Origin: a virus
Virus record (IMG/VR): IMGVR_UViG_3300046777_001793
Span: 56,529-120,528 of that record
Length of the DNA stretch: 64,000 nucleotides
Direction: 5' to 3' (one strand)
Position numbers and translations under genes: made by a program. Of this stretch, positions 1-52,330 are shown piece by piece. How positions within the stretch are numbered: the stretch's first letter is position 1; the number at the start of each line of letters is the position of its first letter. The notes beneath the pieces were generated by a model that had not been told where the DNA came from, did no database searches, and saw nothing but the letters and a program-made list of their open reading frames with translations.

Positions 1-263
1 TATTTAAGAGTTAATACTTTAACTACACTCATTTGTGCATTTAACACTTCACCGATCGCATGATTATAAAGTGTATCTGCTAATGGAGAAGCACCCAGAT
101 TTTTTGCTCTGTACTCTTGTTCCAAAAGATCTGCTGCTTTAGCAAATAATATTTTTGCTTGTGCTACTTTATCATCTGCTGAAGGATTAAAATTTAATCC
201 TACCAATTGCTCTCCAAACGTTAGAGATCTTACTTCTACTTCCATTTTACCTTCTACTACCAT
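1..263 (-). CDS. Acb2/Tad1-hairpin-like small helical protein (candidate nucleotide-signal sponge); 3' end at window edge
   Basis: Not in ORF track. Manual translation from ATG 263: MVVEGKMEVEVRSLTFGEQLVGLNFNPSADDKVAQAKILFAKAADLLE...NHAIGEVLNAQMSVVKVLTLK. The GxxxVGLxFNPS and AxxExxxAQMxxVK pattern recalls Acb2-like helical hairpins. Confidence 0.6.
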   Translation of the reverse strand, partial: MVVEGKMEVEVRSLTFGEQLVGLNFNPSADDKVAQAKILFAKAADLLEQEYRAKNLGASPLADTLYNHAIGEVLNAQMSVVKVLTLK

Positions 264-264
264 C

Positions 265-360
265 TTACTTAGATTTTGTGATTTTTGTTTTTACTATTAC
301 TAAATGCTGAAGCCATCCTTTTAAAGCTTCAATCTTTGCTTTGTTTCCTGTTTTACTCAT
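265..360 (-). CDS. 31-aa peptide
   Basis: MSKTGNKAKIEALKGWLQHLVIVKTKITKSK; exactly fills the gap between co-oriented genes. Confidence 0.45.
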   Translation of the reverse strand: MSKTGNKAKIEALKGWLQHLVIVKTKITKSK

Positions 361-361
361 G

Positions 362-979
362 TTATTTGATTTTTGATAAGTTACGTAATCTTTCCAAAAC
401 ATCTTGGCCATTGTGGCCATCAAAAGGATATTTTGCTTTTTCTTCTACAGGTATTTGGAATAAATCCCAATCTTCTTCTTTGTAGTGATTGGTTATCATT
501 CCATCTGGTAACATTGCTACTACAATAAACCATCCGCCACCAAAACATTCTTTTCCATCATGATGTTTCCATGACTTATGAACATCATATTTGCAATGAT
601 TATATGGTTGCCCTGTGTTTTTCCATTTTGGATTCCACAATTTATTTGCAGCCCACTCATTGAACAATGCAGCATTGTACATTTTTCTGAAATCATACAA
701 CTCATTGTATGTATGGTATCCATCAGAAAATTCTCCAATCTCTGCTTCAGTTGCATAAGTCATTTCAAAGATGTCTGGTTTGCATGCGTAAAACTCACCC
801 TTTACCCCTTTTATAACATAATCTTCAAGACTTGCTCTCATGCTACCTTCCAATGTATGAATAAACAATGCATCACCTTGGAACTCAATATCATTTCCTG
901 CAAATGCTCTAATTTCATTTGCATTTAATCCTGTCCATTGAACAGCTTCTATTACTACTGGTTTCTTTGCGTATTTCAT
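362..979 (-). CDS. Two-domain protein: N-terminal [17 protein letters not shown] domain (PGDYG/Acb4-like) fused to a WDGH-type domain
   Basis: Start moved to ATG 979, next to the upstream stop. Domain 1: [43 protein letters not shown]. Domain 2: [35 protein letters not shown]. Confidence 0.7.
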
Positions 980-980
980 A

Positions 981-1334
981 CTACTTTTCATTTTTACCTT
1001 CAACTTGTCTTCTCTGTCTATCCTTAGTTCTTGCATCTTGCCAATGAATTGCTTCTTCAATCTTTGTGATTGATAAAGCATTTTCTCTACAAGGAAAAGC
1101 TTCATTTAGACTTTGAAATAAACATTTAACATATTTCAACATGTCTAATGCTTGACAACCATTTACACCCACTTCAGAAATAGGATCTGATTGAATTGTA
1201 AATTTCACTACTGGTGCAACACCTTTTACATCTTCTGCATTTTCAATTTGAATAAAATTTATTAAATGCATCTCTTGTGATGTGCTATCCATTTCTCTTT
1301 CAAGAAGATTTCTTGCTTTTTCTACGTGCCTCAT
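981..1334 (-). CDS. tad1: Thoeris anti-defence 1 (Tad1)-family sponge protein
   Basis: C-terminal [34 protein letters not shown] matches the Tad1 signature F.xRENAxAxTxxEEAxxWxxxRxxxRxxRxVxG; preceded by Q..P..EVGVNG. Confidence 0.85.
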
Positions 1335-1723
1335 TATTTATTTCTTTTTCTGTAAGACTTCAAGATTGCTAAGTAGTTGATTGCATCATCAATAGTATCA
1401 TCTACCGCTTCATCTTTTACCATTCCCTCTTTATCTAACAATGTAGATATGCGTGACATTTTATCCATTAATCTCACCAAAATTCCACGTTCAACCGGAA
1501 CACCAGCAATTGTAGAATTTCTAAAGTTTGCATAAGGATCTTTGTTACTACCCCCATAGTCATGATTTTTTCTTACTGCTGTAGCAAGACAATCAGAAAA
1601 GGTTTTTTCCATGTCATGAAGTAATGGGTTTACTTCTAACTTCTTAAGAGTTACAGGTCCGCAAACAGCTCCAACCTTTGCTTCAATTTCTGCAAGTTCT
1701 TTTAACACTTTTTCTTCAGCCAT
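1334..1723 (-). CDS. DUF1599 / nucleotide-modification-associated domain 1 (all-alpha NTP-pyrophosphatase-like)
   Basis: RKNHDYG..DPYANF..GILVRLMDKMSRI..DEAVDDTIDDAINY pattern. Confidence 0.75.
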   Translation of the reverse strand: MAEEKVLKELAEIEAKVGAVCGPVTLKKLEVNPLLHDMEKTFSDCLATAVRKNHDYGGSNKDPYANFRNSTIAGVPVERGILVRLMDKMSRISTLLDKEGMVKDEAVDDTIDDAINYLAILKSYRKRNK

Positions 1724-1725
1724 AT

Positions 1726-2157
1726 TTATTTTATTAATTGGTTACTTTTTAATATTTCACATACTTGCTCAAAAATCCATTCAGTCAAGTATGCTTCAAA
1801 CTCTACTTCTACCTTATTCAGAAAGAAGATTCTTCTTATGTGTTGCATTATGTGTACAATCTCATGAACCAATGTTTTTAAAATATTATCATCAATCTTT
1901 CTAATCACCAATGACAAATAATAATTACCTTCTTCAGTCTGATAATATTCTACATAAGCATCTGTGTAAATCTTTACATCATCATATCCATCAAATACCT
2001 CATTGACTAATTTATGCATATCCTTATCAAAATGTTTGCGTAAACTTTTCATATTTTTTACGCCACATATAAACAAGAACTCTTGATTAATCAAAGGTAT
2101 CTTGATAGACTCAACTATCTCATTTGATTTTGTAGAATTTCCCAAGGATGTTTGCAT
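1726..2157 (-). CDS. small HExxH metallopeptidase-like protein
   Basis: TLVHEIVH followed by EFEAY. Confidence 0.6.
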   Translation of the reverse strand: MQTSLGNSTKSNEIVESIKIPLINQEFLFICGVKNMKSLRKHFDKDMHKLVNEVFDGYDDVKIYTDAYVEYYQTEEGNYYLSLVIRKIDDNILKTLVHEIVHIMQHIRRIFFLNKVEVEFEAYLTEWIFEQVCEILKSNQLIK

Positions 2158-2542
2158 TTAAAAATTCATCACTCTCCAATACACCATAAGCAAATTGATA
2201 TTTACACTCCATGTAAGTCAACTCTGTTGCAGAGAAACAGATATGTAACATATCACGCTTTAGCACAATACCATCTTTATGGGCTTGTTTCAATATCTCA
2301 TTACTACTGAAATAATTTTGATAAGCAGCTTTTTTCTGAATAGTGTATTTTTTCAAACGCTTGTCTGTTACAGCAGCCAATTCCCTTTTACCCATCTTCT
2401 TTTTTGTCTGTGAATAAAAGTTCTTCTTACCAATATATCTCACAGACTTTCCATCAACAATACCACTTATCTCATAGATAAATCCTACTGCATTATCTGG
2501 AATGTCACTATCCTTAAACTCTTTACCTTGATACAACCACAT
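2120..2542 (-). CDS. GIY-YIG family nuclease
   Basis: GFIYEI...YIGKK motif, later ELTYME and FLNANI. Confidence 0.7.
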   Translation of the reverse strand: MWLYQGKEFKDSDIPDNAVGFIYEISGIVDGKSVRYIGKKNFYSQTKKKMGKRELAAVTDKRLKKYTIQKKAAYQNYFSSNEILKQAHKDGIVLKRDMLHICFSATELTYMECKYQFAYGVLESDEFLNANILGKFYKIK

Positions 2543-2690
2543 AAATAAGAATTATTATAATTAATACTACTATGAACAAAAAAGGAACAAGACATCCACC
2601 ATGAACTCTACCCTCATAATCATCCCAATCATCCAATCCCTGTATATAAACCTCATTGTATTTAAAATCTGTGTTTTGCTCTTCTGCCAT
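2523..2690 (-). CDS. 55-aa membrane protein
   Basis: Manual translation MAEEQNTDFKYNEVYIQGLDDWDDYEGRVHGGCLVPFLFIVVLIIIILIYVVVSR; C-terminal TM helix. Confidence 0.5.
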   Translation of the reverse strand: MAEEQNTDFKYNEVYIQGLDDWDDYEGRVHGGCLVPFLFIVVLIIIILIYVVVSR

Positions 2691-2928
2691 AATTTAATGT
2701 TTGTTTACTAAATGCGTGTGTTGTACTAAAGTGATGTGCTGAAACAACAAAGTCATGTGGATTTTTGTATCTCTTTTCCACTCTTTGTCCAACTGCAACC
2801 TCTACAAACTTTGGAAAAAACTGATTAAGTTCTACTCCTATGCAATACGTTCCTATAAAAAGTTTCTTCTTGCACATATCACTAAATACAGTAATTGCTC
2901 TAATCATCAGCTCCCACAATTTAAACAA
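2662..2928 (-). CDS. hypothetical protein
   Basis: ORF in operon order; start uncertain. Confidence 0.45.
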   Translation of the reverse strand: MFKLWELMIRAITVFSDMCKKKLFIGTYCIGVELNQFFPKFVEVAVGQRVEKRYKNPHDFVVSAHHFSTTHAFSKQTLNYGRRAKHRF

Positions 2929-3086
2929 CCCTCATCATCATCTTCTTCCGGATGAGTTTCAATTCTAGGATTTAGAATTTTTTTCAACTCATAAATCTCC
3001 TGTTGTATATCTCCATCCTGGAAAATATCACCAGTCAATTGCGTTCTCAATTCCGCAATCTTTGCTTTGATTTCATTTTCTTCCAT
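2907..3086 (-). CDS. small protein with acidic C-terminal CxxCGS tail
   Basis: MEENEIK...EEDDDEGCLNCGS; ATG 3086 preferred. Confidence 0.6.
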   Translation of the reverse strand: MEENEIKAKIAELRTQLTGDIFQDGDIQQEIYELKKILNPRIETHPEEDDDEGCLNCGS

Positions 3087-3203
3087 ACTTTCTAGCTCTT
3101 TGTACTTTTTTAAACATTCTCTTACCTTCCTTTTCCATCTTGTGTTTCTTATACTCAAACTCATTCATTGGAGCACATGCTGAAATAAAAAGAAACAATA
3201 TCA

Positions 3204-3725
3204 TTACTCTATACATTCCTTCTTTTTAAATTTTTCAAACACATCAAACACCTTATTCTCAAAAACCTTTCTCTTTCTTGACAAAAATGGATTCAGCATA
3301 TAACACACACGCACCTCACCATAAATCCTACCCTTAATCTGATATAACACCCCAGCAGAAACCAAACGTGTAATCAACTTCATAAACATGCTCTTTGATG
3401 AAATCTCTAAATACTTTTGTAGAGATTCATTTGTATGAGGTATAGTATTATTAAATACAATGTTCAAAGGAGTCTTTGTAACAACACTCATCTTAATCAC
3501 ATTTGCAAGATCACTATTGTTCAACAACTTTGTTAATTCCAATAAAGCTTCAGTTTCTAATACAGCATAATCATTAGAAGTAATCATACTCATACCAGTT
3601 TCCTTACTCACATTAACTCCTTCAGGAACTTCAGCCAATACCTTAACCTCACCTGTAACCTCATCTACATAAGATTCCAAATCTAACTCCACGTTACTCT
3701 TTAAGGACTTTACTTTAGCACTCAT
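3204..3725 (-). CDS. RepL-like winged-helix replication/regulatory protein
   Basis: HTH-like region followed by YMLNPFL, typical of the RepL family; adjacent iteron-like repeats. Confidence 0.65.
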   Translation of the reverse strand: MSAKVKSLKSNVELDLESYVDEVTGEVKVLAEVPEGVNVSKETGMSMITSNDYAVLETEALLELTKLLNNSDLANVIKMSVVTKTPLNIVFNNTIPHTNESLQKYLEISSKSMFMKLITRLVSAGVLYQIKGRIYGEVRVCYMLNPFLSRKRKVFENKVFDVFEKFKKKECIE

Positions 3726-3745
3726 CTGTCATTTCATTTACAGGA

Positions 3746-3753
3746 CAAATATA
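3746..3753 (-). promoter_or_regulatory. Bacteroidetes -7 element (TATATTTG) for the repL operon
   Basis: Matches TAnnTTTG, 20 nt upstream of the repL ATG; no clear -33 element. Confidence 0.55.
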
Positions 3754-3754
3754 A

Positions 3755-3851
3755 CTAAAAATAACACTTTTGTGCTAAAAATAACACTTTATTTTTTACC
3801 CAGGTGCTAAAAATAACACCTGTGAGCCTTGTGAGGTGCTAAAAATAACAC
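3755..3851. repeat. four iteron-like direct repeats CTAAAAATAACAC
   Basis: Exact 13-mers at 3755, 3775, 3807 and 3839 (spacing 20, 32, 32); last two extend to the pseudo-palindrome AGGTGCTAAAAATAACACCT. Confidence 0.9.
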
Positions 3852-4236
3852 CTGATAAAAACCCCCACAACCCTTGAAAACATTGGGCTATCCCCCCATC
3901 CTAAGCAAAAACGTACTTATTCTTATTTAGGAGCACATGATGCTAACGCTATAAAGAGAAATTCATGTGTGTGGCGGAGAATGGGTATATTGAAAATTAT
4001 GGATATAATGGTGTGTATGGGTCCTTCCATTATTTGCCCCCCGGGCAAACACAATGTCAGGTGTACCCCCTAGGCAAGCAGCAGGCACAGAGGTTATTGT
4101 TATAGCATAATGACATTAATTTTCTCCAGGGAAGAAGTTTGTGTGCCAGAGGAGAAGGGTGCTTGTCAAGAGAGTGCTTGGGAAGCAGAGCAAGAGAAGA
4201 GAGTGACACAGGAAGGAAGATGCAGGGCAAGGTCTT

Positions 4237-4264
4237 ATTCTATATTAATGACCTCTCGGTCATT
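4237..4264 (+). promoter_or_regulatory. hairpin repeat 1 (candidate virion-RNAP promoter)
   Basis: ATTCTATATT + AATGACC-TCTC-GGTCATT, 15 nt before ATG 4280. Confidence 0.55.
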
Positions 4265-4279
4265 TTAAATTTTATAATT

Positions 4280-4462
4280 ATGAAAAATTTTTCAGTAAGA
4301 GAAATGATTATCATACTAAATGTTGTGGTAATCATTGCATTAGCAGGTTCATTGACTGCTTTATGCATTACAACTAATGTTGTGTTTGTGTACACCTTTG
4401 TGTGCACAGCACCAGTTGCTATGCTTTGTGTTTTAATACTTGATAAGTATGAGAAACAATAA
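4280..4462 (+). CDS. small two-TM membrane protein
   Basis: ATG 4280 (MKNFSVREMIII...), two hydrophobic segments. Confidence 0.65.
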   Translation: MKNFSVREMIIILNVVVIIALAGSLTALCITTNVVFVYTFVCTAPVAMLCVLILDKYEKQ

Positions 4463-4754
4463 TTTGAAAAGGGGAGCTTCCGTAGGGAAGTTCTACCTTT
4501 ACACTATGGTTATTATAACCATAGTATTAATATTTATAATGAGTTCTTGTTCTAAAGGAACATACTATAAGTATGCCTACATAGATTGTAGGAAACAAGA
4601 TGTGGTTACAACTCATTTGATTCCAGTTAACCACACCTTATCTGATGCAGAGATTAACCAAAGACTCTCTGTATATAGAGCTGAAAGAAACAGTTATGTC
4701 CTTATGGATACAATTGTATTGGAAACAGCTTCTACATTATTTATGTTAAAATAA
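4449..4754 (+). CDS. putative lipoprotein
   Basis: Hydrophobic signal ending FIMSS-C. Confidence 0.6.
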   Translation: MRNNNLKRGASVGKFYLYTMVIITIVLIFIMSSCSKGTYYKYAYIDCRKQDVVTTHLIPVNHTLSDAEINQRLSVYRAERNSYVLMDTIVLETASTLFMLK

Positions 4755-4759
4755 TTATT

Positions 4760-4927
4760 ATGAAAAAGAAAATAGAAAAGGCACTATTATATATAGTGTC
4801 AATCATACTAGTGCTTGTTGGATTAACAGGCACTATGTTACACAACCAACTAATTGGTTGTGTTAGTTTATTAATGTTCATTGCAGGAATAATTGCCTTT
4901 ATAGGCACAATGAACAAGTATGAGTAA
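4760..4927 (+). CDS. 55-aa two-TM membrane protein
   Basis: Manual translation MKKKIEKALLYIVSIILVLVGLTG...IIAFIGTMNKYE. Confidence 0.6.
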   Translation: MKKKIEKALLYIVSIILVLVGLTGTMLHNQLIGCVSLLMFIAGIIAFIGTMNKYE

Positions 4928-4999
4928 GACATTCTTGACCACGCATTCTACTACGGTAGGTGTGTGGTCTTACGCTTTAGGACAAACGTGTAACCTTTA

Positions 5000-5026
5000 A
5001 TTCTATATCAATTACCTTTGGTAATT
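5000..5026 (+). promoter_or_regulatory. hairpin repeat 2
   Basis: ATTCTATATC + AATTACC-TTT-GGTAATT. Confidence 0.55.
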
Positions 5027-5196
5027 TTCCCAGTGCGTTACATTCACACCCATTGATAGGCTACGCCTATCATCACCCACATCAAAGACAAGGCACACCA
5101 ACAAAGAGATTACTATCATCAGCACCCAATGTAACACAGCAATGCACCGGCCTTCGGCCTATGCCTATCGGCATCAACAATGTAATGTAATCTTAC

Positions 5197-5223
5197 ATTC
5201 TATACCAATTACCTTCGGTAATT
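5197..5223 (+). promoter_or_regulatory. hairpin repeat 3
   Basis: ATTCTATACC + AATTACC-TTC-GGTAATT. Confidence 0.55.
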
Positions 5224-5229
5224 ACTTAT

Positions 5230-5650
5230 TACAAAAAGTCCTGTTGCTGATTAACTGAACAAATGATGTTTCAGCAACAGGCATTATGTCGTTGTAGGTG
5301 TATTATTATAACCTTCTGTTTGCAGTTTTAGAATAAAACTGTTGTTTGTATGTTAGGCCTAAACATTCACCACCAATACCATTAAGCGTATTGGGTATTC
5401 TCATTCAAGCAGATTGTATAAAGCAATGTTAAAAGGGTTGCAACCTTATGAGAATACAACAACTATGGGGGAAAGTCCTTTAAGGATACCAATTATTACC
5501 GTCTAACATTTGGTAATAACGGTGCGTAAAGCCATAGCGTGAATTAGAGATAGCCCTGATTATAGGGTGTTTGAGAATGAGTGACCAAGGTTAGTGGTTA
5601 GAGCATTTGGCTAATTAAGTGTCAACGAGATAGACACTATTTTTTCCTCA
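5230..5650 (+). ncRNA. candidate ~420-nt structured non-coding RNA
   Basis: No ORF of 60 aa or more. Helices 5240-5250/5271-5281, 5395-5404/5448-5457, 5463-5468/5532-5537 and 5618-5623/5633-5638, the last followed by a T-run. Confidence 0.4.
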
Positions 5651-5659
5651 CAACCTTTC

Positions 5660-5686
5660 ATTCTAAACCAACTACCTTCGGTAGTT
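5660..5686 (+). promoter_or_regulatory. hairpin repeat 4
   Basis: ATTCTAAACC + AACTACC-TTC-GGTAGTT. Confidence 0.55.
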
Positions 5687-5811
5687 CTTACGCTACGCGT
5701 CTTATGCTTTTGCATATATTCCTAAAATTTGGTTAGGGAATTAAAATAATTAACCAGCATTTATTAATTTTTAGAAACCTTGTGGTGTATAGGTCAACCC
5801 AATCTACGGTA

Positions 5812-6486
5812 ATGGAAACTTTAAACACATTAACCGCAAAAAAAGAGTTCATTAAAAACAATTTGGACAAATTGTCTGATGAAACTCGCCCATCTGCATC
5901 TCAAATTAATGCTTTCAAGGCTGGTGACACAAACCACGTTGATGCTTTAGTAGAAGAGATTAACTCATTTGTTGCACCTGCAAATGATGTTATAGCAGAT
6001 GAAACTGTTGAAAAAGTTGATACACTTGTGTATGAAACATTAACAACAGAATCAGGTGCAAGTGTTGAAGTTGTTTGGTTGCCATTCCTTAAATATGGAA
6101 TGCGACAAGACAAACAAACACGCAAGGTTAGAACTAATTACCAATTTGGTTTTGGCTCTAACATAGTAACCATTCAAAACTCTTTACTTGACCCAATCAA
6201 GAAGAGCATTGAAGTAGGTGCAATGTTCCCTATCAAGGTTGAAACTATTCAGCCTATTGTAGCAGAACGCACTTATGGTTACGGTAAACAAGTATTCTCC
6301 GCAGGTATTGCTGAATTTGCTTGTGAGTTGTTGCTTGATGCACGTGCAGAGAAAATGGAAGAGTTGGAAGAACTTTCTCAATTATCTGCGGAAGCACAAG
6401 AGATGGTTATTAAAGCAACCGCTTTAAGCCAAGCAGAGCAATACTTATTGAAGAAAGGTATTAAGTTACCTTCATCAATGAAATAG
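5812..6486 (+). CDS. hypothetical early protein
   Basis: 224-aa ORF from ATG 5812, followed by a terminator. Confidence 0.8.
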   Translation: METLNTLTAKKEFIKNNLDKLSDETRPSASQINAFKAGDTNHVDALVEEINSFVAPANDVIADETVEKVDTLVYETLTTESGASVEVVWLPFLKYGMRQDKQTRKVRTNYQFGFGSNIVTIQNSLLDPIKKSIEVGAMFPIKVETIQPIVAERTYGYGKQVFSAGIAEFACELLLDARAEKMEELEELSQLSAEAQEMVIKATALSQAEQYLLKKGIKLPSSMK

Positions 6487-6493
6487 AGATAAT

Positions 6494-6526
6494 GGAGTGG
6501 TGTAACAACCACTCCTAATCTTTTTT
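6494..6526 (+). terminator. intrinsic terminator
   Basis: GGAGTGGT-GTAACA-ACCACTCC then TAATCTTTTTT. Confidence 0.6.
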
Positions 6527-6710
6527 GTGGGAGCTCTTTGAAACCTCCGGTTTCAGCCGCAAGGCAACCTTCCCTGAAATTACAGGCTGATTGCGTGTGT
6601 AGCGTAACGTATGGATGTTTAAATTACCGTTCCCATAATATGCAGGGTGTGACAATAACACCCAGAAATTACCGTTCCCATGCGTGTGTAGCAACGCTTT
6701 AAAGGATAAA

Positions 6711-6722
6711 TTACTATCATCA
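6711..6722 (+). promoter_or_regulatory. recurrent intergenic motif TTACTATCATCA (also at 5110, 10670, 15447, 42717)
   Basis: Exact 12-mer seen five times, always intergenic. Confidence 0.55.
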
Positions 6723-6757
6723 TAACACAGTATCACATTTAAAAAACCCTAGAAAAA

Positions 6758-6940
6758 ATGAACAATAACTTAATGTTAACTGAAATAACACTCAACCCAA
6801 AAGAGTATTACCAGTTCAGATTACTAGCATTACAGCACAGAGTAATGTTCACAGTAGAGTGGACCAAACAAGGTGCATTAGTTTCTTGTGAAACTCCATT
6901 CCTAATTGCATTTGGTTACATCAATCAAGTAGAATTTTAA
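6758..6940 (+). CDS. hypothetical protein
   Basis: ORF with A-rich leader. Confidence 0.6.
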   Translation: MNNNLMLTEITLNPKEYYQFRLLALQHRVMFTVEWTKQGALVSCETPFLIAFGYINQVEF

Positions 6941-7223
6941 TTAAATGACTATCAGCATTTTACATTTTGCCTTTTTACCTGTTTTCGCTTTTATATAGGC
7001 ATTTTGTAATTTGCTGATTAATAACCGGTTAGTCTACTTGTTACACCGGTAAAACACAACAAAAATTACCACTTTCAACTAAGAATTTAATTGATAACAC
7101 ACAAATTGTAGCAGATTGTGGTAAATTTTTTTGTGTAACGTGTTGATTTGTAAGTGTTTGGCGACCAGTCACCCAAATCATCATATTTCATAAAACCCCT
7201 AAACCCTAAAAAATTTTAATAAT

Positions 7224-7559
7224 ATGGCAATAAGACAGTTTATTACAGGCTTCAAGACCTTTGTAGTATTGACTACTTGTATGTTAGCAATGCAGAACTT
7301 ATACACAACAATACAGTATGGTAGGCTTAATGCTTACTATGACTTTGATGTTATAGATTGGTCTTTAATGACTATATGTGTTCTCTTTAACTTATCTATT
7401 AGTGTTATTGATGCTATAACAACCACAGAAACGTGTATAATACAAACAGATACAGACACTTTATCATATCTGGAGAAAACATTACCATTCATACCAGATG
7501 GAGATTTTAAACAAGAGATTACAGAGCATATAGAAAACATATATGTAGAGAAGTATTAA
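7224..7559 (+). CDS. membrane protein
   Basis: Two hydrophobic segments. Confidence 0.65.
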   Translation: MAIRQFITGFKTFVVLTTCMLAMQNLYTTIQYGRLNAYYDFDVIDWSLMTICVLFNLSISVIDAITTTETCIIQTDTDTLSYLEKTLPFIPDGDFKQEITEHIENIYVEKY

Positions 7560-7627
7560 GGGTGAAGCCGGAGATAATATCAATGGCTTTCATCATTATA
7601 TGGCAATAAAAAATAAAAGACATTCCT

Positions 7628-7864
7628 ATGATTAAATTAACATTTATATGGTGGTTACTTACAGGAACAGTAACACCAACAGGTGAACAACATGAAGGAC
7701 ATAAACTTTATCACGTTCTAGTAGATAAGAATACCGCAATTGAGAATGCCTATAAAGGTGAGATTCTTAATTACATTAAGACAGGAACATTTGTGTACAA
7801 TGATTTCTATGAATGGGAAGATGAAGACCAGATCATAGAAGAAACATTTTACACAAAAAATTAA
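7628..7864 (+). CDS. small putative secreted protein
   Basis: Short hydrophobic N-terminus. Confidence 0.6.
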   Translation: MIKLTFIWWLLTGTVTPTGEQHEGHKLYHVLVDKNTAIENAYKGEILNYIKTGTFVYNDFYEWEDEDQIIEETFYTKN

Positions 7865-8261
7865 ATAACATTCCACACTACTGGATTATGTTACAGCAGT
7901 AGTATATCAACGGTATCCTTAACAGGGCTTGGAGATGGGTTGTAACAATTAAGTCCACAAAGTAATACGTAATTAGTCAACTCTATTATCTTTGTGGCAT
8001 GAATGGTAGTCAGGCTGCTTACTATGTGCATTAAACTACAACGCAATAGTTTCACATAGTTCCTGATGATTTGCGTAGATTGACCCAAAGGCATGGGTTG
8101 TGTAAAAAATATGGCTATCAAGTGTCATACAATCTGAACAGGTGCTTCCTGTTATTTATAAAAAAGAATATTATGAACAGATGTATTTATTGCAATGCAA
8201 AAATTATTGATGAAGCTGAACTATGTGATGAATGTAGTGTAGGTGAAAGTATTTAAAATAT

Positions 8262-8351
8262 GGTGGTATGGCGGAATTGGTAGACGTATTAACTCTTTAA
8301 GATGATTTCAACAGGAGAAAAGATATACAGGTTCAAGTCCTGTTGCCACCT
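8262..8351 (+). tRNA. degenerate tRNA-like element with Leu-type body; anticodon unresolved
   Basis: Acceptor GGTGGTA/TGCCACC, D-arm GCGGAATTGGTAGACGT, T-arm ACAGG-TTCAAGT-CCTGT; anticodon stem pairs poorly. Confidence 0.6.
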
Positions 8352-8483
8352 CATTTTCCCCTGCAATAAGTGGATCGGAGTGAATAATCAGGTAACAACT
8401 CCCCTCAAACGGTATGAGAGAATGTAAGGCTAAACAATAGTCTGATAACCGGAAAATAGTGACAGCCAGGAAAGACTGGTAAC

Positions 8484-8606
8484 TGGTTGGTAGCATACAT
8501 GGTGTATGTATAGGTTCATAAAGTGTCGGTAGTCAAGACTGTGATTAAGCAATATAAGCATGAGAATAAAGCACACCTATCACAGGTTCAAGTCCTGAAC
8601 CAACCA
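8484..8606 (+). ncRNA. tRNA-like element with a 61-nt expanded anticodon loop
   Basis: TGGTTGG/CCAACCA acceptor, D-like hairpin, ATAGG(8510)/CCTAT(8576) stem, T-loop TTCAAGT; T-arm shared with the upstream element. Confidence 0.55.
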
Positions 8607-8836
8607 CGAAGTTCGCTGGTTAATGGGAGAGATTGGTATCTTATCATCTCACGTGAATGGATTGTTTTAAAGGCAACAAATACTCACACCAACCTCTGCA
8701 ACTTGAAACAAAACTGTACTGCTTTAGAAAGATAGCACCTGATAGGCTTTGACCTATGAAGATACCGGGAAAAATTTGATGAAGTATGTATGATGTCCGA
8801 CAAGTTTGCCACAGGGTATGTTTTAGCAGGACAATT

Positions 8837-8899
8837 AACCGGTGATTAGATAAATATTTACTTGACATTCATAAATATCTATCACCGGTTTCTTTTTTT
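8837..8899 (+). terminator. long hairpin terminator
   Basis: AACCGGTGATTAGAT...ATCTATCACCGGTT followed by TCTTTTTTT. Confidence 0.6.
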
Positions 8900-8922
8900 A
8901 GTAACCCCTTAATACATAATAA

Positions 8923-9546
8923 ATGAAGAATCTGTATGAGATTTTAGCTGTAGCAAAGGATGCAACAGCAGAACAAATTAAAAAAGCTTACCGTAAGTTG
9001 GCAATGAAACATCACCCAGATAAGGGCGGTGATGACAAAACATTTCAAGAACTATCAAAGGCATATACCATATTGTCTGATGAAGATAAGCGTAAACGCT
9101 ATGATGAAACAGGACAAGTTGAAGAAGAACGTGATCCATTCAATGAGATACTTGCATCATTTATATCTGATTTGCAAGAACAAATGGATAGTCTTAATGA
9201 TGACATCATTGAGAAAGGTAAAAAGAAAATCAAGAAAGAAATAAAAGAAATCAATCTTGCTCGCATACAAACAGACAACAAGATTAAGTATCTCAATTTC
9301 TTTTTAAAGCGTATCAAAAAAGATACAGAGTCAAATGTCTTTAAGCTGGTAACAGAAAATAAAATTCAACAACTTACTACTAAGCTTGAAGCTATAAATA
9401 AATCTATGGATATACTCAAACGTATGCAAGATATATTCAATGGAGATTTAGAGTATGACTTTAACTCTGAAGATGAATACACATCATCAAAGGAAGAATA
9501 CCCTGATGATGTATTTGAAACATTACACCAGAAACTTTTTAAATAA
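8923..9546 (+). CDS. J-domain (DnaJ-like) co-chaperone with coiled-coil C-terminus
   Basis: LYEILAV..IKKAYRKLAMKHHPDKGG..AYTILSD..R..YD. Confidence 0.9.
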   Translation: MKNLYEILAVAKDATAEQIKKAYRKLAMKHHPDKGGDDKTFQELSKAYTILSDEDKRKRYDETGQVEEERDPFNEILASFISDLQEQMDSLNDDIIEKGKKKIKKEIKEINLARIQTDNKIKYLNFFLKRIKKDTESNVFKLVTENKIQQLTTKLEAINKSMDILKRMQDIFNGDLEYDFNSEDEYTSSKEEYPDDVFETLHQKLFK

Positions 9547-45631: not shown

Positions 45632-46177
45632 ATGGATTTAGTAGAAGACTTAAAAACATATTGTCAAAAAAGCACAATGTTTTTATGGCCCATGTTGGCT
45701 TTACCAACAAATATAAAACCAATATCCACTTACCTTGTTGTAGATGGAATTGAAACAGATACTCCGGTATTATATGCATTATTTCCAAACACAACCATGA
45801 AGAATGTATTGCTAAAGCAATCTATCATGAGTCATAAAATGTTTGAGTATGTTATTAATGATGGAGATTTTGACATTGTAGTATTCAACTTAAATGAAAT
45901 TGACAAAGACTATTTATACGTTATTAATGGTAAATATTCTCACATTTCACAAAGCAATAAAGTTAAAATTGTAAGCTCAACAAAAAATAAATTAGCAGAG
46001 ATTGGATTATATCCATCAAAATATTATGATTTGTATAGAGATGAATTAGAGATTGACTTTGATGAAAAAGAAGGCCCAGAACTACTGGACCTTCCTGATT
46101 TCAATTGTAATGAAAAATTACATGTTTCAGATAGTGTAAAAAACTATTTAAGTAAAATAGTCACATCACTATCTTAA
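45632..46177 (+). CDS. hypothetical protein
   Basis: QKSTMFLWP..GKYS; last gene of the + strand block. Confidence 0.7.
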   Translation: MDLVEDLKTYCQKSTMFLWPMLALPTNIKPISTYLVVDGIETDTPVLYALFPNTTMKNVLLKQSIMSHKMFEYVINDGDFDIVVFNLNEIDKDYLYVINGKYSHISQSNKVKIVSSTKNKLAEIGLYPSKYYDLYRDELEIDFDEKEGPELLDLPDFNCNEKLHVSDSVKNYLSKIVTSLS

Positions 46178-49100
46178 AGTATGATCTTGTTTTAATCCAT
46201 GGCGAGGATCTATTATTTTACCATCTAAATTAAATTGGTACTTCATATAAAGATTAAATGCTTTATTGTTGTACCATTTAGTTTCAGCACCTTCCTTAAT
46301 ACCTTCTTGCCAAATATAAGGACCAGCATCTTGTTCGTAAGTATCACCATTTACAGCATAACCAAATCCATCAATGATGTCTTTAAAAATGTTGTTTTCA
46401 CCTACTACTGAACCAGACATAATTAAATTTGGCATAGAAGCAACTAATCCTGAATTATAAGGATCCCATGGTGTTACAGGAAGCATAGATTCTTGCTCTT
46501 TGATAATTCTATTTACAATCCTAAGAGCATTCATTTTAAACCATTCCATAGTAGAAAACCTATTACCCCATTGTACAGTCTGATTAGGTTGTACAAGGGG
46601 TAAATTAGGTACACCATTCATTTTTTTCATCATTGCATGTGCACCTTCTTCTCCTGGTGAAAAAGTAAAATCATTCTCCCCATTATCATCTTCATCATAA
46701 TGTGAAAGTCTTTGTTTTAATAACCTCAACATTATGTTAGTTGTAAGAAGTATCAATAAAGAATACAATGCAGTTTTTTGTGGAGCATTCAGTTTTCTTT
46801 TTGAATTTAGTATTGTTGCTATAGCTGTAGCAGCACCTACAAATGTTCCAAGTTCTCTTTGTTGAGTAGAATAATTCTTTGTAGCTGTACCATAAGTTCC
46901 TGTTTTTTTGTTAAACTTCATGTTATAATGTCCACTCAACATACCTGGAATAAACTTCATAATAAAGAATGTAGTTTTTACCCAAATATTTCTGAAAGCA
47001 TCAGGTTCGTTAAAGTCACTTACCGCACCAATATTCTTTTGAATAATTCTTTGGTGAACATTCTTAATTTTTTTTAATTTTTCACCCATTACAATTCTAC
47101 CATCAGAGTCATAAGATATTTTCATATCAGATGGAACTCCTTTAATAGTAACAACTCTTCCTTCATCATCTAATGTAAGAGCATCATAGAGAGCAACTTT
47201 TTTGCCATTAATTTCAAAACTATTATGTCTTAATATAGCCAAAAACTGATGAACAGGAACAGAATCACCCATATATTTTCTATCTGTAAATCTAAGTGTA
47301 CCAGCTCTAAAATCTCCCCAAACAGTTCTTGCACCAAATGTACCTGCATCTTTTTTCATCAAGTCTGGTACAGCATCAGTAACACGTAATAATTGTATTA
47401 ACGGATCTATTTCACCCGACTTATATCTTGCAGCCATAAGTTTTTTAACAGTATTAAATGATTTAGCTCTAGTCATTACTAAATCATTTAAACTATAATT
47501 ATCACCAGTTGCTCTTGAATAAAGTAATGTTTTACCTGAACCGTAGTTTGCAGTAGATGAAACAGCATTAAAACCAAACCAAAGAACAGAAGCATGCTTT
47601 TGCATGTAACTCATAAGTTTTAAATAACTTCTTTGAAATCCTGTTGAAAAAATAAATTTAGGATCAATAACCACATCTTCACCAGCAAGATGTTTATCAA
47701 GTGAATGCTGTATTGCTCTTAATCTTTTTGATTCACTACCGTTTAATTTAGCATTAAATAAGTTTAAACCTTTTAATTTATCTACATAAGACTTCATTTC
47801 AGGTGACATAGCAATATCCTTAATTGTTCTATTAAACAATTGCATAAATGGCATTGCTTTTCTTGCAGACTTATAATGCTCAATTGAATAAGATTGTAAA
47901 CCAATTGATGCAATTATATTTGTAGAAACATCATTAGCATTTAAATGATATAAACCAGTAATAGGTCTTGTCAAAGGTTCATCCATTTTAGGAGTTGCTA
48001 AACCAAAATCAACATCATCCGCTTGCTGTCTAAACACGTTGACAATAGATCTGATTTTAGCCATAAAGTATTCACCAAAACCTTCTCTTCTTTTAAGAGT
48101 ACCATAAAGAGATTTTTCAGTTCCAGATTTTCTAATATTTGGATAACTGATGTAACCTTTTTGAGAAGCATCTAATCCTTTTTGATTATCTAAATGATGG
48201 TCTTTAATCATTAGCATAGCATCAAAAAGCTTTCTGTCTTCTTCAAACATTCTCTGATAATCATCATCAATATAGCGGCGGTCATTAGGATCTGTTTTTG
48301 GCAACCATCTCCCACTATTATCTACGTTAGCTATAACAAGAGTTTCTGCTCCAGTAACAGGATTAACATCAATATAATCTCTTTCTATTTTTTCTCTAAG
48401 AAATTCTGGTTTAATTACTCTTGACCTATAGTTCATATTAGGAACTCTTGGAATACCATCAAGTTCAATATAACCATTAGGAAATAATCCATTTTGAGGA
48501 CTTAAAGGATTTGTAGTTGCTGCTCTTGTGTGGTAATAAGCAATATCCCTTGGAGCTGTAGTTGTCCAAGCTGGTGATTTAATATATTTTTCAACTAAAC
48601 CAATTGCTTGACCACTACTGTTATATTCAATTCTTTCAGCAAGATAGTGGTTATCAAAAAAGAAATCTCTAAAAGAAGGATCAGAACTAGCTAAATCTTC
48701 AAGAAAACTTACATTAGATAATAATTCCTCTAAATGTTCTTTAGATAATGAACCTGTAGAATAAATATCTTCACCAAACAATGCATCAATTTCAGTTGCT
48801 ACTGCATCAAGAACTCCTGTATTATTAAACACAACATCATTAAAAGCAACCAAATAATCATCAGTTGATTCTGTTATTGACATTTCACGTAACTCTTTTT
48901 CAATAGCACGTAATTCAACAATATCATTAAAATTAATAAGACTTTGTGAAATTTTTTGTTTTAAAATATCGTCATAGTATATATAGCGTTGTTCTTCTTG
49001 ATATGTAAGAGTGCTATATGTAGCTTTATTTTGTAAGAAAACAAAATCTTTATAATCATCACCAGTTAAACCACTTAACTGTAAATAAGAATCTTTTGCT

Positions 49101-52100
49101 CTATCTATTTCTTCAGCAAGTTCAGTAGCTTTTCTTTGTTGAGCAGATGTTAGATTAAACCCACTATATTGACCAGCTTCATTTTTTGTAGGCTTTAAAA
49201 TGTCTGTATAAAGTTTTTCATAAATACCAGAAATATCTTGAATAGAATTATTTACAGCAATAAGATCAGCCATAATTTCATTTCTTCTATCTACTAATTG
49301 CTTTCTTTTTTCAAAATAAGCATCATCAATTTCTACACTTGTATTATACTTTATCCACTTTTCAATTGCTACTTTACGGTCATTACCTTGAATATTTGAT
49401 GCATCAAGTCCATGTAAAAATGTGTCAAAACTATTTTCAAATTTCATTGGTACATCAACATATTCATAGAAATCTTTAGTCTTTTCTTTATATTGATTAA
49501 GTAATTCAGCAATTGCTAATTCATCACCAGTCTTGTCATTACCATTAGCATCAACTTTACTATACAATTGTCTAAACTCAACCCATAATTTACTAAGTTC
49601 AATCTCAATATCAAAACTTGTAGGATCATGCATTGTGTTAGCTGTAAGCATACGCATTCTTGTAAATACATCATCAATGCGTTCTTGAGCCATTTCCCCT
49701 ATTGGAGAATCCATCATATAATCAAACTCATAAACTTCATCAACACCATCTCTATTCATATATTCTGCTTCCCATTGCTTATAAAGCTTAACTGCTTTAT
49801 TGAAAGCTTTAAGATTTTCAGGAGTTGGATTTAATGTATGAGTGTCTTTTGCTTCTTGAATTTTAATTTCTAATAACTTTTTATCAGCTCTCCAATCTTT
49901 AAAATTATTAGCAAAAATCCATTCTTCAGAATCTTCAAATCCTGCTTTAGCAATAGATAATCTTTCATACTCTAATTGCTGTTCAGGTGTTCTATTTGTA
50001 ATAACAGATAATTGACTCCACTTTTCTCTTTCTTTTGCTGAAAGTTCATTTCTTGTATTAATTATCCTATCTTTCTTACCAATTGCTCTACCCAAAGCAT
50101 TTTCACCAAAAAGTTTATTTGCGTGAACAGTTCCTTTAAGTTTGCTTTTTAATTTGGCAAGAAGTTCTGCTTGTCTAGCATTGGCATTTCCGGAAAGTTC
50201 ATTAAAAAATTGTGAGATATAGTTATGGAAACCACCAACAATATCATCACTAGAATTTAAATAACCTGTTCCAATAGATGATAACGCACCTACATCACCC
50301 AATGTATTTCCAATAAGAGCTTTTAGTTGCTCTTTTGATATACTTTGAGAATACATACTCATTTGTTTTAAATAAGTGTATCTATTCTCATCTCTGTTTG
50401 CAGGAAGAACTTTTTCTAAATTACTTAATTCAGTATGTTCTGCTGGAGTTAATCCATACCATTGTTTGTATCTTCTTTCATATTCAGCATAAAGATTTGA
50501 ATCTTTTAAAGCTTGTAACTCACTCATAGCTTCATCTTCAATAGGCTGATTAATTTTTTTCATGTGTTCATAGAACTCATCAAAGACAGCATCTGAAAAT
50601 GTCTGTTTAACTTTATTAGAAAGTTGATTGAGTTTACCTTTGCTACTAATATATAATTGAGCAATTGGATCTTGCGTATTATATAAATCAAAGTAACCTT
50701 TAGAAATATTGTCATAAAAATTTTGCCAATTTTCAATATACATCTGCATAGCTAACATCACCTCAAAATCATCTCTTGTAAGTTGATTTGCTCTTAGTAA
50801 GTCAGCTCTTTCATTTAATTTTTCAAATACCACATCAACATTTGCTAACGCTGTAACAAATAATTCAATCTTGTGCTTTACAATTTCAGCATCTGTAGCA
50901 GTTGTATTATCATAAAGTTCTAATCTTTTTATTGCTCTTGTTCCTTTTGATGAAAGCTCATTAAGGTTTTTACGTATAGTTTGTAATATACCTTCATTAA
51001 AATCATCAGAAAGTTCAGCTTTTAGTGTAGCAAAAATTGAGTTTTCTTTAGTTAAGTTACCTACTTGTTTTTGAACAAGCTCATAGAAATCATCAATAAC
51101 CTGTTGTGTTCTTTCAAGACTTGCTTTTGTAAGAACATCTTGAACTTCTTCTTGATATTTTCTTTGGAACATTACAATATCATCCTCGGTAATGAAATCT
51201 GTATTTAATTCAAACATTTCACCCTCATTCAACATATCAAGAAGTTCTCTTAATGTAGTATCCGGTTTTAATTTAGATACATTAACATTTCTTCCAAATG
51301 CTTTTCTTAAAAACTGTTTTATGTTAAATAGAAGTTCTTTAAACCAAGACTTTTTCTCATACCCAAAATCCTTGTTCATTCTTTCCATAGTCTGAACCAT
51401 AACTTCTTCCATAAATTCAGGACTGTTCTCTTTTAGTTCAGGGTAGTATTTTTGGACATAAGTAAATAAATCAAAACCATCATCTGATTTTACTACATCA
51501 CTATACAGTTTGTTAAACAAATCAGGATTATTTTTTGATAAAGCTTTAATTATTGGGTGAGCAAACTCATGTAATACTGTATCATGATTAAATAAACCAG
51601 CAACAAAATAAACTTTACCTTTCATAAAGAAACCTGCTGCTTTTGGAGCATCAGGAAACATTACTTCAAACTCTTCTTCAGTAATTACTTCATAATCCAC
51701 ACCAAGTTGATTAGAAAGCCTCATCATTACTTCAGTAGCCTTTCTTTTGTTTTGAGATTCAAAAATTTCTTTTACTTCCTCAATACCTTTTAAATCATCA
51801 ACCAGTTCTTCTTCTTGATCTATTTGAAATACTGATTCATCTAATTCAGGTTGAATATCTTCAATTTCTCTATTCTTAAAAAGAATTTTATCAATAACAT
51901 ATTCTGGACTTCTAACTTTTCCATTTTGTTCAATAACATCTGTAAATGCTTCATCATACCCTACAACTTCAACAAGAGCATCAAACTTTACTTTATCTTC
52001 TTCAGATAAATTAAGTGGCTTACGCTTTAAATAAGTAACTGTTGATTTTGATGTTGGTGTTTGAACATCAGTTTCAGGTTTAGAATCCCATGTTTGTTTT

Positions 52101-52330
52101 ACACCAAAGAAACCAGGGTTTTCATTTTCTTTTATAGCATCAGTCTGTTCAAACATATCAGGTGTATTTTCTTCCCTAATTTGTAATCCCAAATCATCAA
52201 GTGTAGGAAAAGAACCACTAGGGTTCTTCTCCATCCACACTCCAACTTTTGCTTTTAATATTTCTTCATTTAAACCTGTGACTTGTTGTAAGTTAACAAA
52301 GTCTGGGTGAGTAGTATTAACACATATCAT
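46169..52330 (-). CDS. giant virion cargo (ejection) protein with N-terminal zincin-like motif
   Basis: 2053 aa; LHEFAHP..EEVMV; coupled downstream of the vRNAP gene, as in crAss-like phages. Confidence 0.75.
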   Translation of the reverse strand: MICVNTTHPDFVNLQQVTGLNEEILKAKVGVWMEKNPSGSFPTLDDLGLQIREENTPDMFEQTDAIKENENPGFFGVKQTWDSKPETDVQTPTSKSTVTYLKRKPLNLSEEDKVKFDALVEVVGYDEAFTDVIEQNGKVRSPEYVIDKILFKNREIEDIQPELDESVFQIDQEEELVDDLKGIEEVKEIFESQNKRKATEVMMRLSNQLGVDYEVITEEEFEVMFPDAPKAAGFFMKGKVYFVAGLFNHDTVLHEFAHPIIKALSKNNPDLFNKLYSDVVKSDDGFDLFTYVQKYYPELKENSPEFMEEVMVQTMERMNKDFGYEKKSWFKELLFNIKQFLRKAFGRNVNVSKLKPDTTLRELLDMLNEGEMFELNTDFITEDDIVMFQRKYQEEVQDVLTKASLERTQQVIDDFYELVQKQVGNLTKENSIFATLKAELSDDFNEGILQTIRKNLNELSSKGTRAIKRLELYDNTTATDAEIVKHKIELFVTALANVDVVFEKLNERADLLRANQLTRDDFEVMLAMQMYIENWQNFYDNISKGYFDLYNTQDPIAQLYISSKGKLNQLSNKVKQTFSDAVFDEFYEHMKKINQPIEDEAMSELQALKDSNLYAEYERRYKQWYGLTPAEHTELSNLEKVLPANRDENRYTYLKQMSMYSQSISKEQLKALIGNTLGDVGALSSIGTGYLNSSDDIVGGFHNYISQFFNELSGNANARQAELLAKLKSKLKGTVHANKLFGENALGRAIGKKDRIINTRNELSAKEREKWSQLSVITNRTPEQQLEYERLSIAKAGFEDSEEWIFANNFKDWRADKKLLEIKIQEAKDTHTLNPTPENLKAFNKAVKLYKQWEAEYMNRDGVDEVYEFDYMMDSPIGEMAQERIDDVFTRMRMLTANTMHDPTSFDIEIELSKLWVEFRQLYSKVDANGNDKTGDELAIAELLNQYKEKTKDFYEYVDVPMKFENSFDTFLHGLDASNIQGNDRKVAIEKWIKYNTSVEIDDAYFEKRKQLVDRRNEIMADLIAVNNSIQDISGIYEKLYTDILKPTKNEAGQYSGFNLTSAQQRKATELAEEIDRAKDSYLQLSGLTGDDYKDFVFLQNKATYSTLTYQEEQRYIYYDDILKQKISQSLINFNDIVELRAIEKELREMSITESTDDYLVAFNDVVFNNTGVLDAVATEIDALFGEDIYSTGSLSKEHLEELLSNVSFLEDLASSDPSFRDFFFDNHYLAERIEYNSSGQAIGLVEKYIKSPAWTTTAPRDIAYYHTRAATTNPLSPQNGLFPNGYIELDGIPRVPNMNYRSRVIKPEFLREKIERDYIDVNPVTGAETLVIANVDNSGRWLPKTDPNDRRYIDDDYQRMFEEDRKLFDAMLMIKDHHLDNQKGLDASQKGYISYPNIRKSGTEKSLYGTLKRREGFGEYFMAKIRSIVNVFRQQADDVDFGLATPKMDEPLTRPITGLYHLNANDVSTNIIASIGLQSYSIEHYKSARKAMPFMQLFNRTIKDIAMSPEMKSYVDKLKGLNLFNAKLNGSESKRLRAIQHSLDKHLAGEDVVIDPKFIFSTGFQRSYLKLMSYMQKHASVLWFGFNAVSSTANYGSGKTLLYSRATGDNYSLNDLVMTRAKSFNTVKKLMAARYKSGEIDPLIQLLRVTDAVPDLMKKDAGTFGARTVWGDFRAGTLRFTDRKYMGDSVPVHQFLAILRHNSFEINGKKVALYDALTLDDEGRVVTIKGVPSDMKISYDSDGRIVMGEKLKKIKNVHQRIIQKNIGAVSDFNEPDAFRNIWVKTTFFIMKFIPGMLSGHYNMKFNKKTGTYGTATKNYSTQQRELGTFVGAATAIATILNSKRKLNAPQKTALYSLLILLTTNIMLRLLKQRLSHYDEDDNGENDFTFSPGEEGAHAMMKKMNGVPNLPLVQPNQTVQWGNRFSTMEWFKMNALRIVNRIIKEQESMLPVTPWDPYNSGLVASMPNLIMSGSVVGENNIFKDIIDGFGYAVNGDTYEQDAGPYIWQEGIKEGAETKWYNNKAFNLYMKYQFNLDGKIIDPRHGLKQDHTLR

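Follow-up and report, generated by a model that had tools for sequence, protein, structure and literature searches.

A fusion of a PGDYG-like barrel and a WDGH domain in a distant crAss-like phage as a candidate antagonist of nucleotide immune signalling

A fast-growing field deals with phage proteins by which the alarm nucleotides of bacteria are soaked up or destroyed, and the locus described here raises the question of whether a fusion of two small phage modules could be such a protein. The window (the whole stretch of DNA analysed, 64,000 nt, positions 56,529 to 120,528 of IMG/VR virus record IMGVR_UViG_3300046777_001793) carries near its left end a gene for a 205 amino acid (aa) protein in which a small N-terminal β-barrel resembling PGDYG proteins is joined to a C-terminal WDGH domain. 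The original prediction, made from the DNA letters, had taken it for an Acb4-like sponge of cyclic GMP-AMP (cGAMP) fused to a WDGH-type domain, perhaps capturing and destroying cyclic nucleotide signals. The analysis led to a different and still tentative answer, plausible but short of probable: that the fusion protein is a two-module antagonist of nucleotide immune signalling in a distant crAss-like phage. The gene and its two parts are as follows.

362–979, minus strand: two-domain gene, 205 aa, translated open reading frame (ORF) from the ATG at 979 to the TAA at 362–364
740–979, minus strand: small β-barrel module, residues 1–80, PGDYG-like, matching PHROG families 419, 1810 and 4502
365–739, minus strand: WDGH domain (Pfam PF25311), with the motifs SDGYHT, HKSxxHxDG, NHY and FDGH

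An alternative in-frame ATG at position 991 would yield a 209 aa product (P0001), and residue numbers such as D90 and H93 follow that 209 aa scheme; the ATG at 979 was chosen as the start since homologues begin at the same position. Matches to the fusion protein at E ≤ 0.001 were obtained for 2889 of 2945 candidate proteins, and relatives of the gene were encoded in 534 of 553 candidate IMG/VR stretches. Counts of related loci given below refer to 80 loci kept among the IMG/VR stretches that encode a relative; the fused ORF was present in the same form in 72 of these. The ratio of nonsynonymous to synonymous substitution rates, calculated against five orthologues, was 0.10–0.32, with synonymous sites close to saturation. 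The fusion gene is thus real, conserved and under purifying selection. NCBIfam gave no match for its product, and scans for promoters, terminators, tRNAs and Rfam families around the gene returned nothing bearing on it.

The split into two domains, as claimed at the outset, was borne out by three lines of evidence: the Pfam WDGH match covers residues 82–200, PHROG 419 covers residues 1–77, and the AlphaFold2 model falls into two compact parts. The first 75 residues correspond to positions 979–755 and close with KPDIFEMTY, and the motifs named in the original prediction, FDGH included, were all found in the translation. The same division also occurs in nature, where the two modules recombine. 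Streptococcus phage IPP66 has the barrel and WDGH as separate neighbouring genes of 82 and 131 aa, and in one related locus (L073) the order is WDGH, the gene here called FNPS (see below) and the barrel, the two modules being unfused with one gene between them.

The assignment of the second domain to WDGH holds: PF25311 matched with E = 7e-33 and 113.3 bits (cut-off 27), spanning positions 1–96 of a profile of 97. The family is large: at E ≤ 0.001 it has 2896 representatives of 50%-identity clusters (1308 at E ≤ 1e-10), and it has members in phages that infect hosts of many phyla. Identity to the domain studied here is 54–74% for the best 150 representatives, whose flanks differ, and WDGH may be N-terminal, in the middle or C-terminal in proteins of 122–473 aa. 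Positions invariant or nearly so in these 150 include S89, D90, G91, H93, T94, E97, L98, Y99, R102, N106, N111, H138, K139, S140, H143, G146, C149, W154, N168, H169, Y170, W175, D191, G192, H193, D197 and R201, and D145 is kept in them as well. In distant members at 37–43% identity (Streptococcus phage IPP66, Bacillus phage Thrax2 and Klebsiella phage LASTA) the residues still kept are D90-G-x-H93-T, E97-L-Y, R102, H143-x-D145-G, P162, G164, H169 and D191-G-H193. By these alignments the core of WDGH comprises three motifs of the type ‘Asp-Gly plus His’ and an additional His, a pattern that looks like a catalytic or metal-binding site. A structural zinc site built from C149, H138 and N168 was considered and dropped, these positions varying in the distant members.

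WDGH proteins fall into PHROG families 3392, 3769 and 21846 and include those of Lactococcus phages P092 and P1046, Klebsiella phage LASTA and stand-alone forms of 125–150 aa. A search of the ESM Atlas with WDGH, leaving out PF25311, gave no usable match. In Bacillus phage vB_BanS-Thrax2 (L086, 1483–2680) a 151 aa WDGH gene is immediately followed by a NADAR gene, and a DUF4326 gene is close by; in tblastn rows WDGH and NADAR are paired in the same way in phage Nate. In Erwinia phage pEp_SNUABM_01 (L085) a weak relative of the fusion (30% identity) was found just after Sir2-like and DNA ligase genes; the second ORF annotated beneath this match is not WDGH by alignment, and the match may lie in another frame.

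The identity of the first domain had to be revised. PHROG 419 matched residues 1–77 of the whole protein with E = 6e-31, and the 80 aa piece with E = 7.7e-32; this piece further matched PHROG 1810, 4502 and 4159, and on its own it hit no Pfam family at E ≤ 10. The proposed likeness to Acb4 is refuted, there being no match to PF13876 and a different predicted topology. The Acb4 profile failed to match domain 1 (E ≤ 10), the whole protein or any frame of the genome (E ≤ 1), and the modelled barrel runs strand, helix, five strands, helix, versus a three-strand core between helices in Acb4. Among the Foldseek and VIA matches listed for either model there was no Acb4 entry, though absence from these lists leaves room for a structural match. 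The looser label ‘PGDYG-like’, which the original prediction had also used, is fair. BFVD neighbours named ‘PGDYG protein’ are 41–53% identical to the barrel over about 80 columns, and sub-threshold PF14083 matches were seen in three of 109 scanned proteins (108 relatives and the barrel itself), the best with E = 0.0012. Strict membership of PGDYG was rejected, since PF14083 matched neither the barrel at E ≤ 10 nor anything in the genome at E ≤ 1; a cluster of the Atlas in which 26% of the members carry PF14083 (rank 8, score 0.83) counts as a lead only. The barrel stands beside WDGH in 58 of the 120 nearest proteins, in one of 144 cluster representatives and in five of 120 longer proteins, and it precedes WDGH in all 64 proteins in which a local hidden Markov model (HMM) search found both.

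The main finding is the company kept by the two modules in other proteins. A search restricted to the barrel listed 120 proteins of 114–366 aa. Their precomputed labels were WDGH in 12, PF24729 in 18, PF24729 with PF21825 in four and PF21825 in three; PF25189, PF04448, PF13248 and PF26760 occurred on one each. A rescan covered 109 proteins, namely 108 close relatives of the barrel without WDGH and the barrel itself; it found the Acb2_Tad1_hairpin in 22, crAss001_48 (PF21825, Sequestin) in seven, DUF551 in two and Tad8 in one, the single fusion cases being checked individually. The fusion partners of WDGH, whose survey had been proposed together with the original prediction, include Tad2 and Sequestin. 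Fusions of WDGH to a Tad2-like domain are present in P0246 and in phage csAssE-Sib, the N-terminus of the latter having been examined as a possible barrel and rejected. Fusion to Sequestin occurs in P0229 and in one of the 150 representatives. Among 120 longer WDGH proteins, the label WDGH stood alone in 111, and the partners found were GNAT (three) and Sequestin, Tad2, DUF551, DUF4406, PF27191 and DUF3850 (one each). Three related loci carry a 300 aa triple fusion of barrel, WDGH and Tad2 (L018, 470–1372; L020, 3995–4897; L074, 4175–4897) on contigs of 6.5, 109 and 128 kb; in the second of these Pfam places WDGH at 96–196 and the Tad2-like domain at 205–300. Most sister loci (L019, L021–L072) end after WDGH. 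Acb4 was a partner in none of the barrel and WDGH lists (0/120, 0/120, 0/109 and 0/150). Judged by these domain assignments, both modules are part of a fusion network of proven anti-Thoeris and anti-CBASS proteins. Since the recognised partners are anti-Thoeris families (the Tad1/Acb2 hairpin, Tad2, Sequestin and Tad8), signals derived from ADP-ribose are a better guess for the target than cGAMP.

The genes around the fusion bear on the same question. Those next to it are:

981–1334, minus strand: Tad1 (Thoeris anti-defence 1) homologue, 117 aa, recognised by a phmmer match to solved Tad1
1334–1723, minus strand: DUF1599-like gene (nucleotide modification associated domain 1), 129 aa, matching phrog_1485 with E = 2e-14 and, below the cut-off, PF07659 with E = 0.0021
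265–360, minus strand: 31-codon ORF separating the fusion gene from the FNPS gene; blastp relatives of 65–69% identity in three of the 80 loci (L003–L005)
1–263, minus strand, continuing 3 nt past the window edge: ‘FNPS’ gene, 88 aa, a full ORF on the contig, related to the Acb2/Tad1 hairpin

Residues 37–116 of the upstream gene product aligned with residues 51–131 of the solved Tad1 chain 8kbb_A (phmmer, E = 4e-12); five other Tad1 chains matched with E about 4e-6, and the Pfam Acb2_Tad1_hairpin with E = 0.0011 (19.6 bits, under the cut-off of 27). A single base lies between the Tad1 stop codon (981–983) and the ATG at 979, which makes translational coupling of the two genes probable. The Tad1 homologue is carried by none of the 80 related loci, which marks it as a recent acquisition in a variable slot. 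In another locus (L006) a 95 aa Tad2-like gene (E = 3.4e-22) lies at this place, flanked by the DUF1599 gene and the fusion gene; of the 14 loci with DUF1599, the 13 others have nothing in the slot, the gap from DUF1599 to the fusion being at most about 110 nt. With Tad1 here and Tad2 at the same position in L006, this is therefore a variable slot that takes up sponge genes. On the downstream side, the FNPS gene has a conserved GEQLVGLNFNPS...AQM motif and is present in 12 of the 80 loci; in one (L003) two FNPS paralogues flank the fusion gene. It had no direct family match, Acb2 included, and two of its seven aligned homologues matched the Acb2/Tad1 hairpin PF24729 (best E = 2.4e-8). The placement of the fusion ‘between two sponge-like genes’ was therefore largely right: the upstream gene is a Tad1 homologue, and the downstream gene is linked to sponges through its homologues, without a match of its own.

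The window is the second half of a viral record of 120,528 bp with direct terminal repeats, rated 100% complete and with a G+C content of 30.7%. The large terminase is 24–26% identical to those of crAss-like phages of Bacteroides and Flavobacterium, which indicates a distant crAss-like (gut-type) phage. The fusion gene is part of a long leftward operon, made up of small accessory genes, whose start is a strand switch at about 3725–4140. At this switch between the leftward and rightward operons the sign of the GC skew flips and the local G+C content rises to 43%; no tRNA or Rfam family was matched there, and the sole tRNA within positions 1–9000 of the window is a tRNA-Lys(UUU) at 8262–8352. 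Two genes upstream of the DUF1599/Tad1/fusion group lies a gene resembling SegE-type GIY-YIG homing endonucleases (2120–2542, minus strand; PF19835, E = 1.3e-20), kept in 13 of the 80 loci; a 2026 paper cited in an editorial reportedly deals with the amplification of anti-defence genes by homing endonucleases. A 143 aa ORF at 1726–2157 (minus strand) has an HEIVH motif (HExxH-like) and no family match. Two giant ORFs, as in crAss-like phages, occupy 46169–63999 on the minus strand (one of 2053 aa, and one of at least 3715 aa reaching the end of the window).

What the modules might do was approached through structure prediction. The AlphaFold2 model of the two-domain protein had a mean predicted local distance difference test (pLDDT) value of 91.8 and a predicted template modelling (pTM) score of 0.74, with a pLDDT above 90 in the barrel; a model of WDGH alone gave 91.8 and 0.82, respectively. 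Foldseek found no match in the PDB at E ≤ 0.001 for the full model or for the WDGH-only model, the comparison of the barrel fold resting on the two-domain model. Sequence and profile searches against PDB chains stayed at or above E = 0.1 with the protein, E = 0.44 with the barrel profile and E = 0.86 with the WDGH profile. With no fold match for either domain, the chemistry cannot be read from the structure.

A prediction with two full-length copies pointed to a homodimer, with a score of 0.75 compared with 0.00 for the best of three controls; among proteins with solved structures, 20 of 30 pairs and one of 23 single chains attain the mark set for this score. Contacts agreed by at least 91% between runs, and the pLDDT of the partner was at least 83. 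The predicted interface is symmetric, with contacts between the two L98 residues and between the two L109 residues, and is formed by helix 95–116, helix 195–206, residues 88–93 (SDGYH) and the first strand of the barrel (4–17). In this model D90 and H93 of the SDGYHT motifs of both chains are predicted to lie near the two-fold axis, and L98, Y99 and R102 may be invariant because of their location in the predicted interface. Small size with homo-oligomerization, and fusion to or proximity to known sponges, are among the sponge traits listed by Tal et al., as relayed in an editorial, along with a deep pocket of positive charge where protomers meet, and binding of an immune signal with rescue of phage from a signalling defence; the protein studied here has 205 aa, is predicted to assemble as a homodimer, and shows the second trait as well.

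A mechanism can be proposed on this basis. The contacts of the homodimer would be made by the first, long helix of WDGH and by its last one, bringing the two SDGYHT motifs (D90, H93) together at the two-fold axis. D90-G-x-H93, H143-x-D145-G, H169 and D191-G-H193 would make up one or more working sites that bind the signal and perhaps hydrolyse it. The PGDYG-like barrel would be a second, independent module for ligand binding or targeting, the same one that other phages place before Tad1/Acb2-type, Sequestin and Tad8 domains. That the protein acts on immune signals at all, on which of them, and by binding or by cleavage, we infer. That WDGH is conserved in phages whose hosts belong to unrelated phyla agrees better with a universal small molecule as the target than with a protein specific to one host. 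The anti-Thoeris partners, together with the NADAR gene next to WDGH in Thrax2, make signals derived from ADP-ribose the first guess, and our best guess for the target is accordingly that of Thoeris-type signals, made by Toll/interleukin-1 receptor (TIR) proteins. A more specific form, in which WDGH would be a dimeric His/Asp hydrolase with a new fold, possibly metal-dependent, that destroys TIR-made ADP-ribose signals, and the barrel a new family of sponges (‘capture and destroy’), seems to us unlikely.

Several observations weigh against a role in immune antagonism. PADLOC gave zero matches. Neither domain, as modelled, matches a known fold or a solved protein, which does not by itself prove the folds new. 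C149, H138 and N168 are replaced in distant WDGH members, so that part of the ‘His cluster’ appears to be lineage-specific. The barrel is acidic (pI 4.8). As for partners, 79 of the 120 listed barrel proteins have no recognised partner domain, and 148 of the 150 WDGH representatives have WDGH only; WDGH is also fused to the non-immune domains GNAT, DUF4406, DUF3850 and DUF551, and the barrel is tied to a MazG-type PHROG and to a protein named QueE. The most conserved upstream neighbour is the DUF1599 ‘nucleotide modification’ gene, found in 14 of the 80 loci as well as in this genome. The neighbour genes of the window were not found in 61 of the 80 loci (mostly from phages of about 150 kb), of which only three carry a fused Tad2. 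Finally, the split genes of IPP66 are located in a head-morphogenesis module.

Some of these observations are what would be expected of an accessory protein for the nucleotide pool or for DNA modification, in which the modules and the DUF1599 (MazG-fold) gene would jointly act on nucleotides, ordinary or modified, rather than on immune signals. The conservation of that neighbour fits such a role, as do the match of the barrel to phrog_4159, annotated ‘nucleotide pyrophosphohydrolase’ (E = 1e-9), a BFVD neighbour of the barrel named QueE, the fusions of WDGH to DUF4406 and GNAT, and the MazG-like and ATP-grasp-like ORFs seen by eye just upstream in L073. However, the recognised partners of the barrel are mostly proven immune antagonists (30 of the 109 proteins scanned), the slot beside the gene holds Tad1 here and Tad2 in L006, and no DNA-modification enzyme was recognised among the scanned neighbours. 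This alternative is rather improbable, though it survives better than those that follow.

An inhibitor aimed at proteins has also to be weighed. One or both modules would then bind a host protein, either an immune enzyme, as Tad3–Tad8 do, or some other factor. One relative of the barrel is fused to Tad8, for which an editorial relays a prediction that it plugs the ThsA effector; both modules have as a partner DUF551, which forms the C-terminal domain of lambda Ea22; and the acidity of the barrel would be in keeping with this role. Yet identities of 54–74% over 150 representatives from phages of unrelated host phyla would be unusual for a binder of fast-evolving host proteins, and so many invariant His and Asp residues are more suggestive of a site for a ligand or for catalysis. 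A protein target is, in our judgement, unlikely.

The combination proposed originally, an Acb4-type cGAMP sponge with a nuclease that destroys cyclic dinucleotides, retains the two-module design in its favour, and the predicted symmetric dimer, with conserved His residues at the two-fold axis, would suit a symmetric cyclic dinucleotide; Acb5 provides the precedent of a small oligomeric phage enzyme that cleaves cGAMP. The failure of domain 1 against the Acb4 HMM, its different predicted topology, and lists of partners that contain anti-Thoeris families and no Acb4 make it very unlikely. Most improbable of all is a morphogenesis or virion accessory protein without a counter-defence role, as suggested by the position of the IPP66 barrel and WDGH genes between capsid-module genes and by a WDGH gene in L079 that follows a 403 aa ORF of structural look (by eye), since the gene studied here belongs to a leftward accessory-gene operon beside Tad1, WDGH moves freely among architectures, and head-module sites are common insertion points for accessory genes.

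The immune-antagonist reading, should it hold, would reach beyond this phage. WDGH and the PGDYG-like barrel are both very widespread in phages of many hosts, and neither has a solved structure. Activity of either on immune signals would give a function to a large share of the accessory genes that stand unannotated in phages, and would possibly define a new catalytic fold; were the combination of hydrolase and sponge to be true, two very large phage domain families would become immune-evasion families. Among the papers covered, none names PGDYG, PF25311, PF14083, phrog_419 or PF25189, and text matches to ‘WDGH’ were unrelated; the supplements of the Tal and Chang preprints might list the families. 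As regards the fusion screen of Tal et al., the available main text of the preprint reports only PF21825 and mentions neither the barrel nor WDGH, and here too the supplements might list them.

Among known systems, Acb4 (PF13876, Phage_gp49_66) is the one with which the first domain was originally compared. According to the available text of the preprint by Chang et al. (10.1101/2024.12.30.630793), it is a tetramer-forming protein of 96 aa, dsRBD-like, in which N-terminal helices and two C-terminal helices flank a core of three strands, and K36, F48, E49, Y57, N63, T70 and K81 are its contacts to cGAMP; the sole resemblance found to domain 1 is that both are small phage domains in anti-defence islands. 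For the second domain the nearest comparisons are enzymes. RyDEP is described, in the material available, as an RyR-domain (PF02026) glycosidase acting on 2′ and 3′ cyclic ADP-ribose (cADPR) through H75 and D117, and Acb5, in a similarly partial account, as cleaving cGAMP in a two-fold symmetric site between protomers. The fusion protein resembles both in being a small phage protein; His-based destruction of a signal is theirs, and would be no more than a candidate activity for WDGH, for which they serve as precedents. No relation in sequence or fold to either of them came up. Unlike RyDEP, it has no RyR domain (PF02026), a Pfam scan of the whole protein (E ≤ 1) listing WDGH only. Acb5 was compared with WDGH by its description, and a site of its type between protomers would be allowed by the predicted WDGH dimer. 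Other WDGH proteins share the domain and its motifs, most of them without the N-terminal barrel.

The closest parallels come from the sponges themselves. Sequestin (PF21825, crAss001_48-related), the newest of the sponge families and a verified 3′cADPR sponge of 60–80 aa with a helical fold, was discovered as the commonest fusion partner of Tad2 and Acb4, as reported in the available text of a 2025 preprint (Tal et al., 10.1101/2025.07.12.664507), that is, by the same fusion logic that now flags both halves of the fusion protein. Like Sequestin, both modules are fused into the same network, Sequestin included, and occur in crAss-like phages; in contrast to the helical Sequestin, with its demonstrated binding of 3′cADPR, the barrel and WDGH have other predicted folds and are known here from sequences and models. 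The fusions of two sponges reported in the same preprint text, namely Acb4-Tad2 in Pasteurella phage Pm86, Tad2-PF21825 and PF21825-Acb4, differ in that both of their halves are proven sponges, whereas both halves of the protein studied here are uncharacterised and WDGH, with its conserved His and Asp residues, seems more enzyme-like. The design is nevertheless the same, two putative anti-signalling modules in one polypeptide, and the fusions of barrel, WDGH and Tad2 in L018, L020 and L074 extend it to three.

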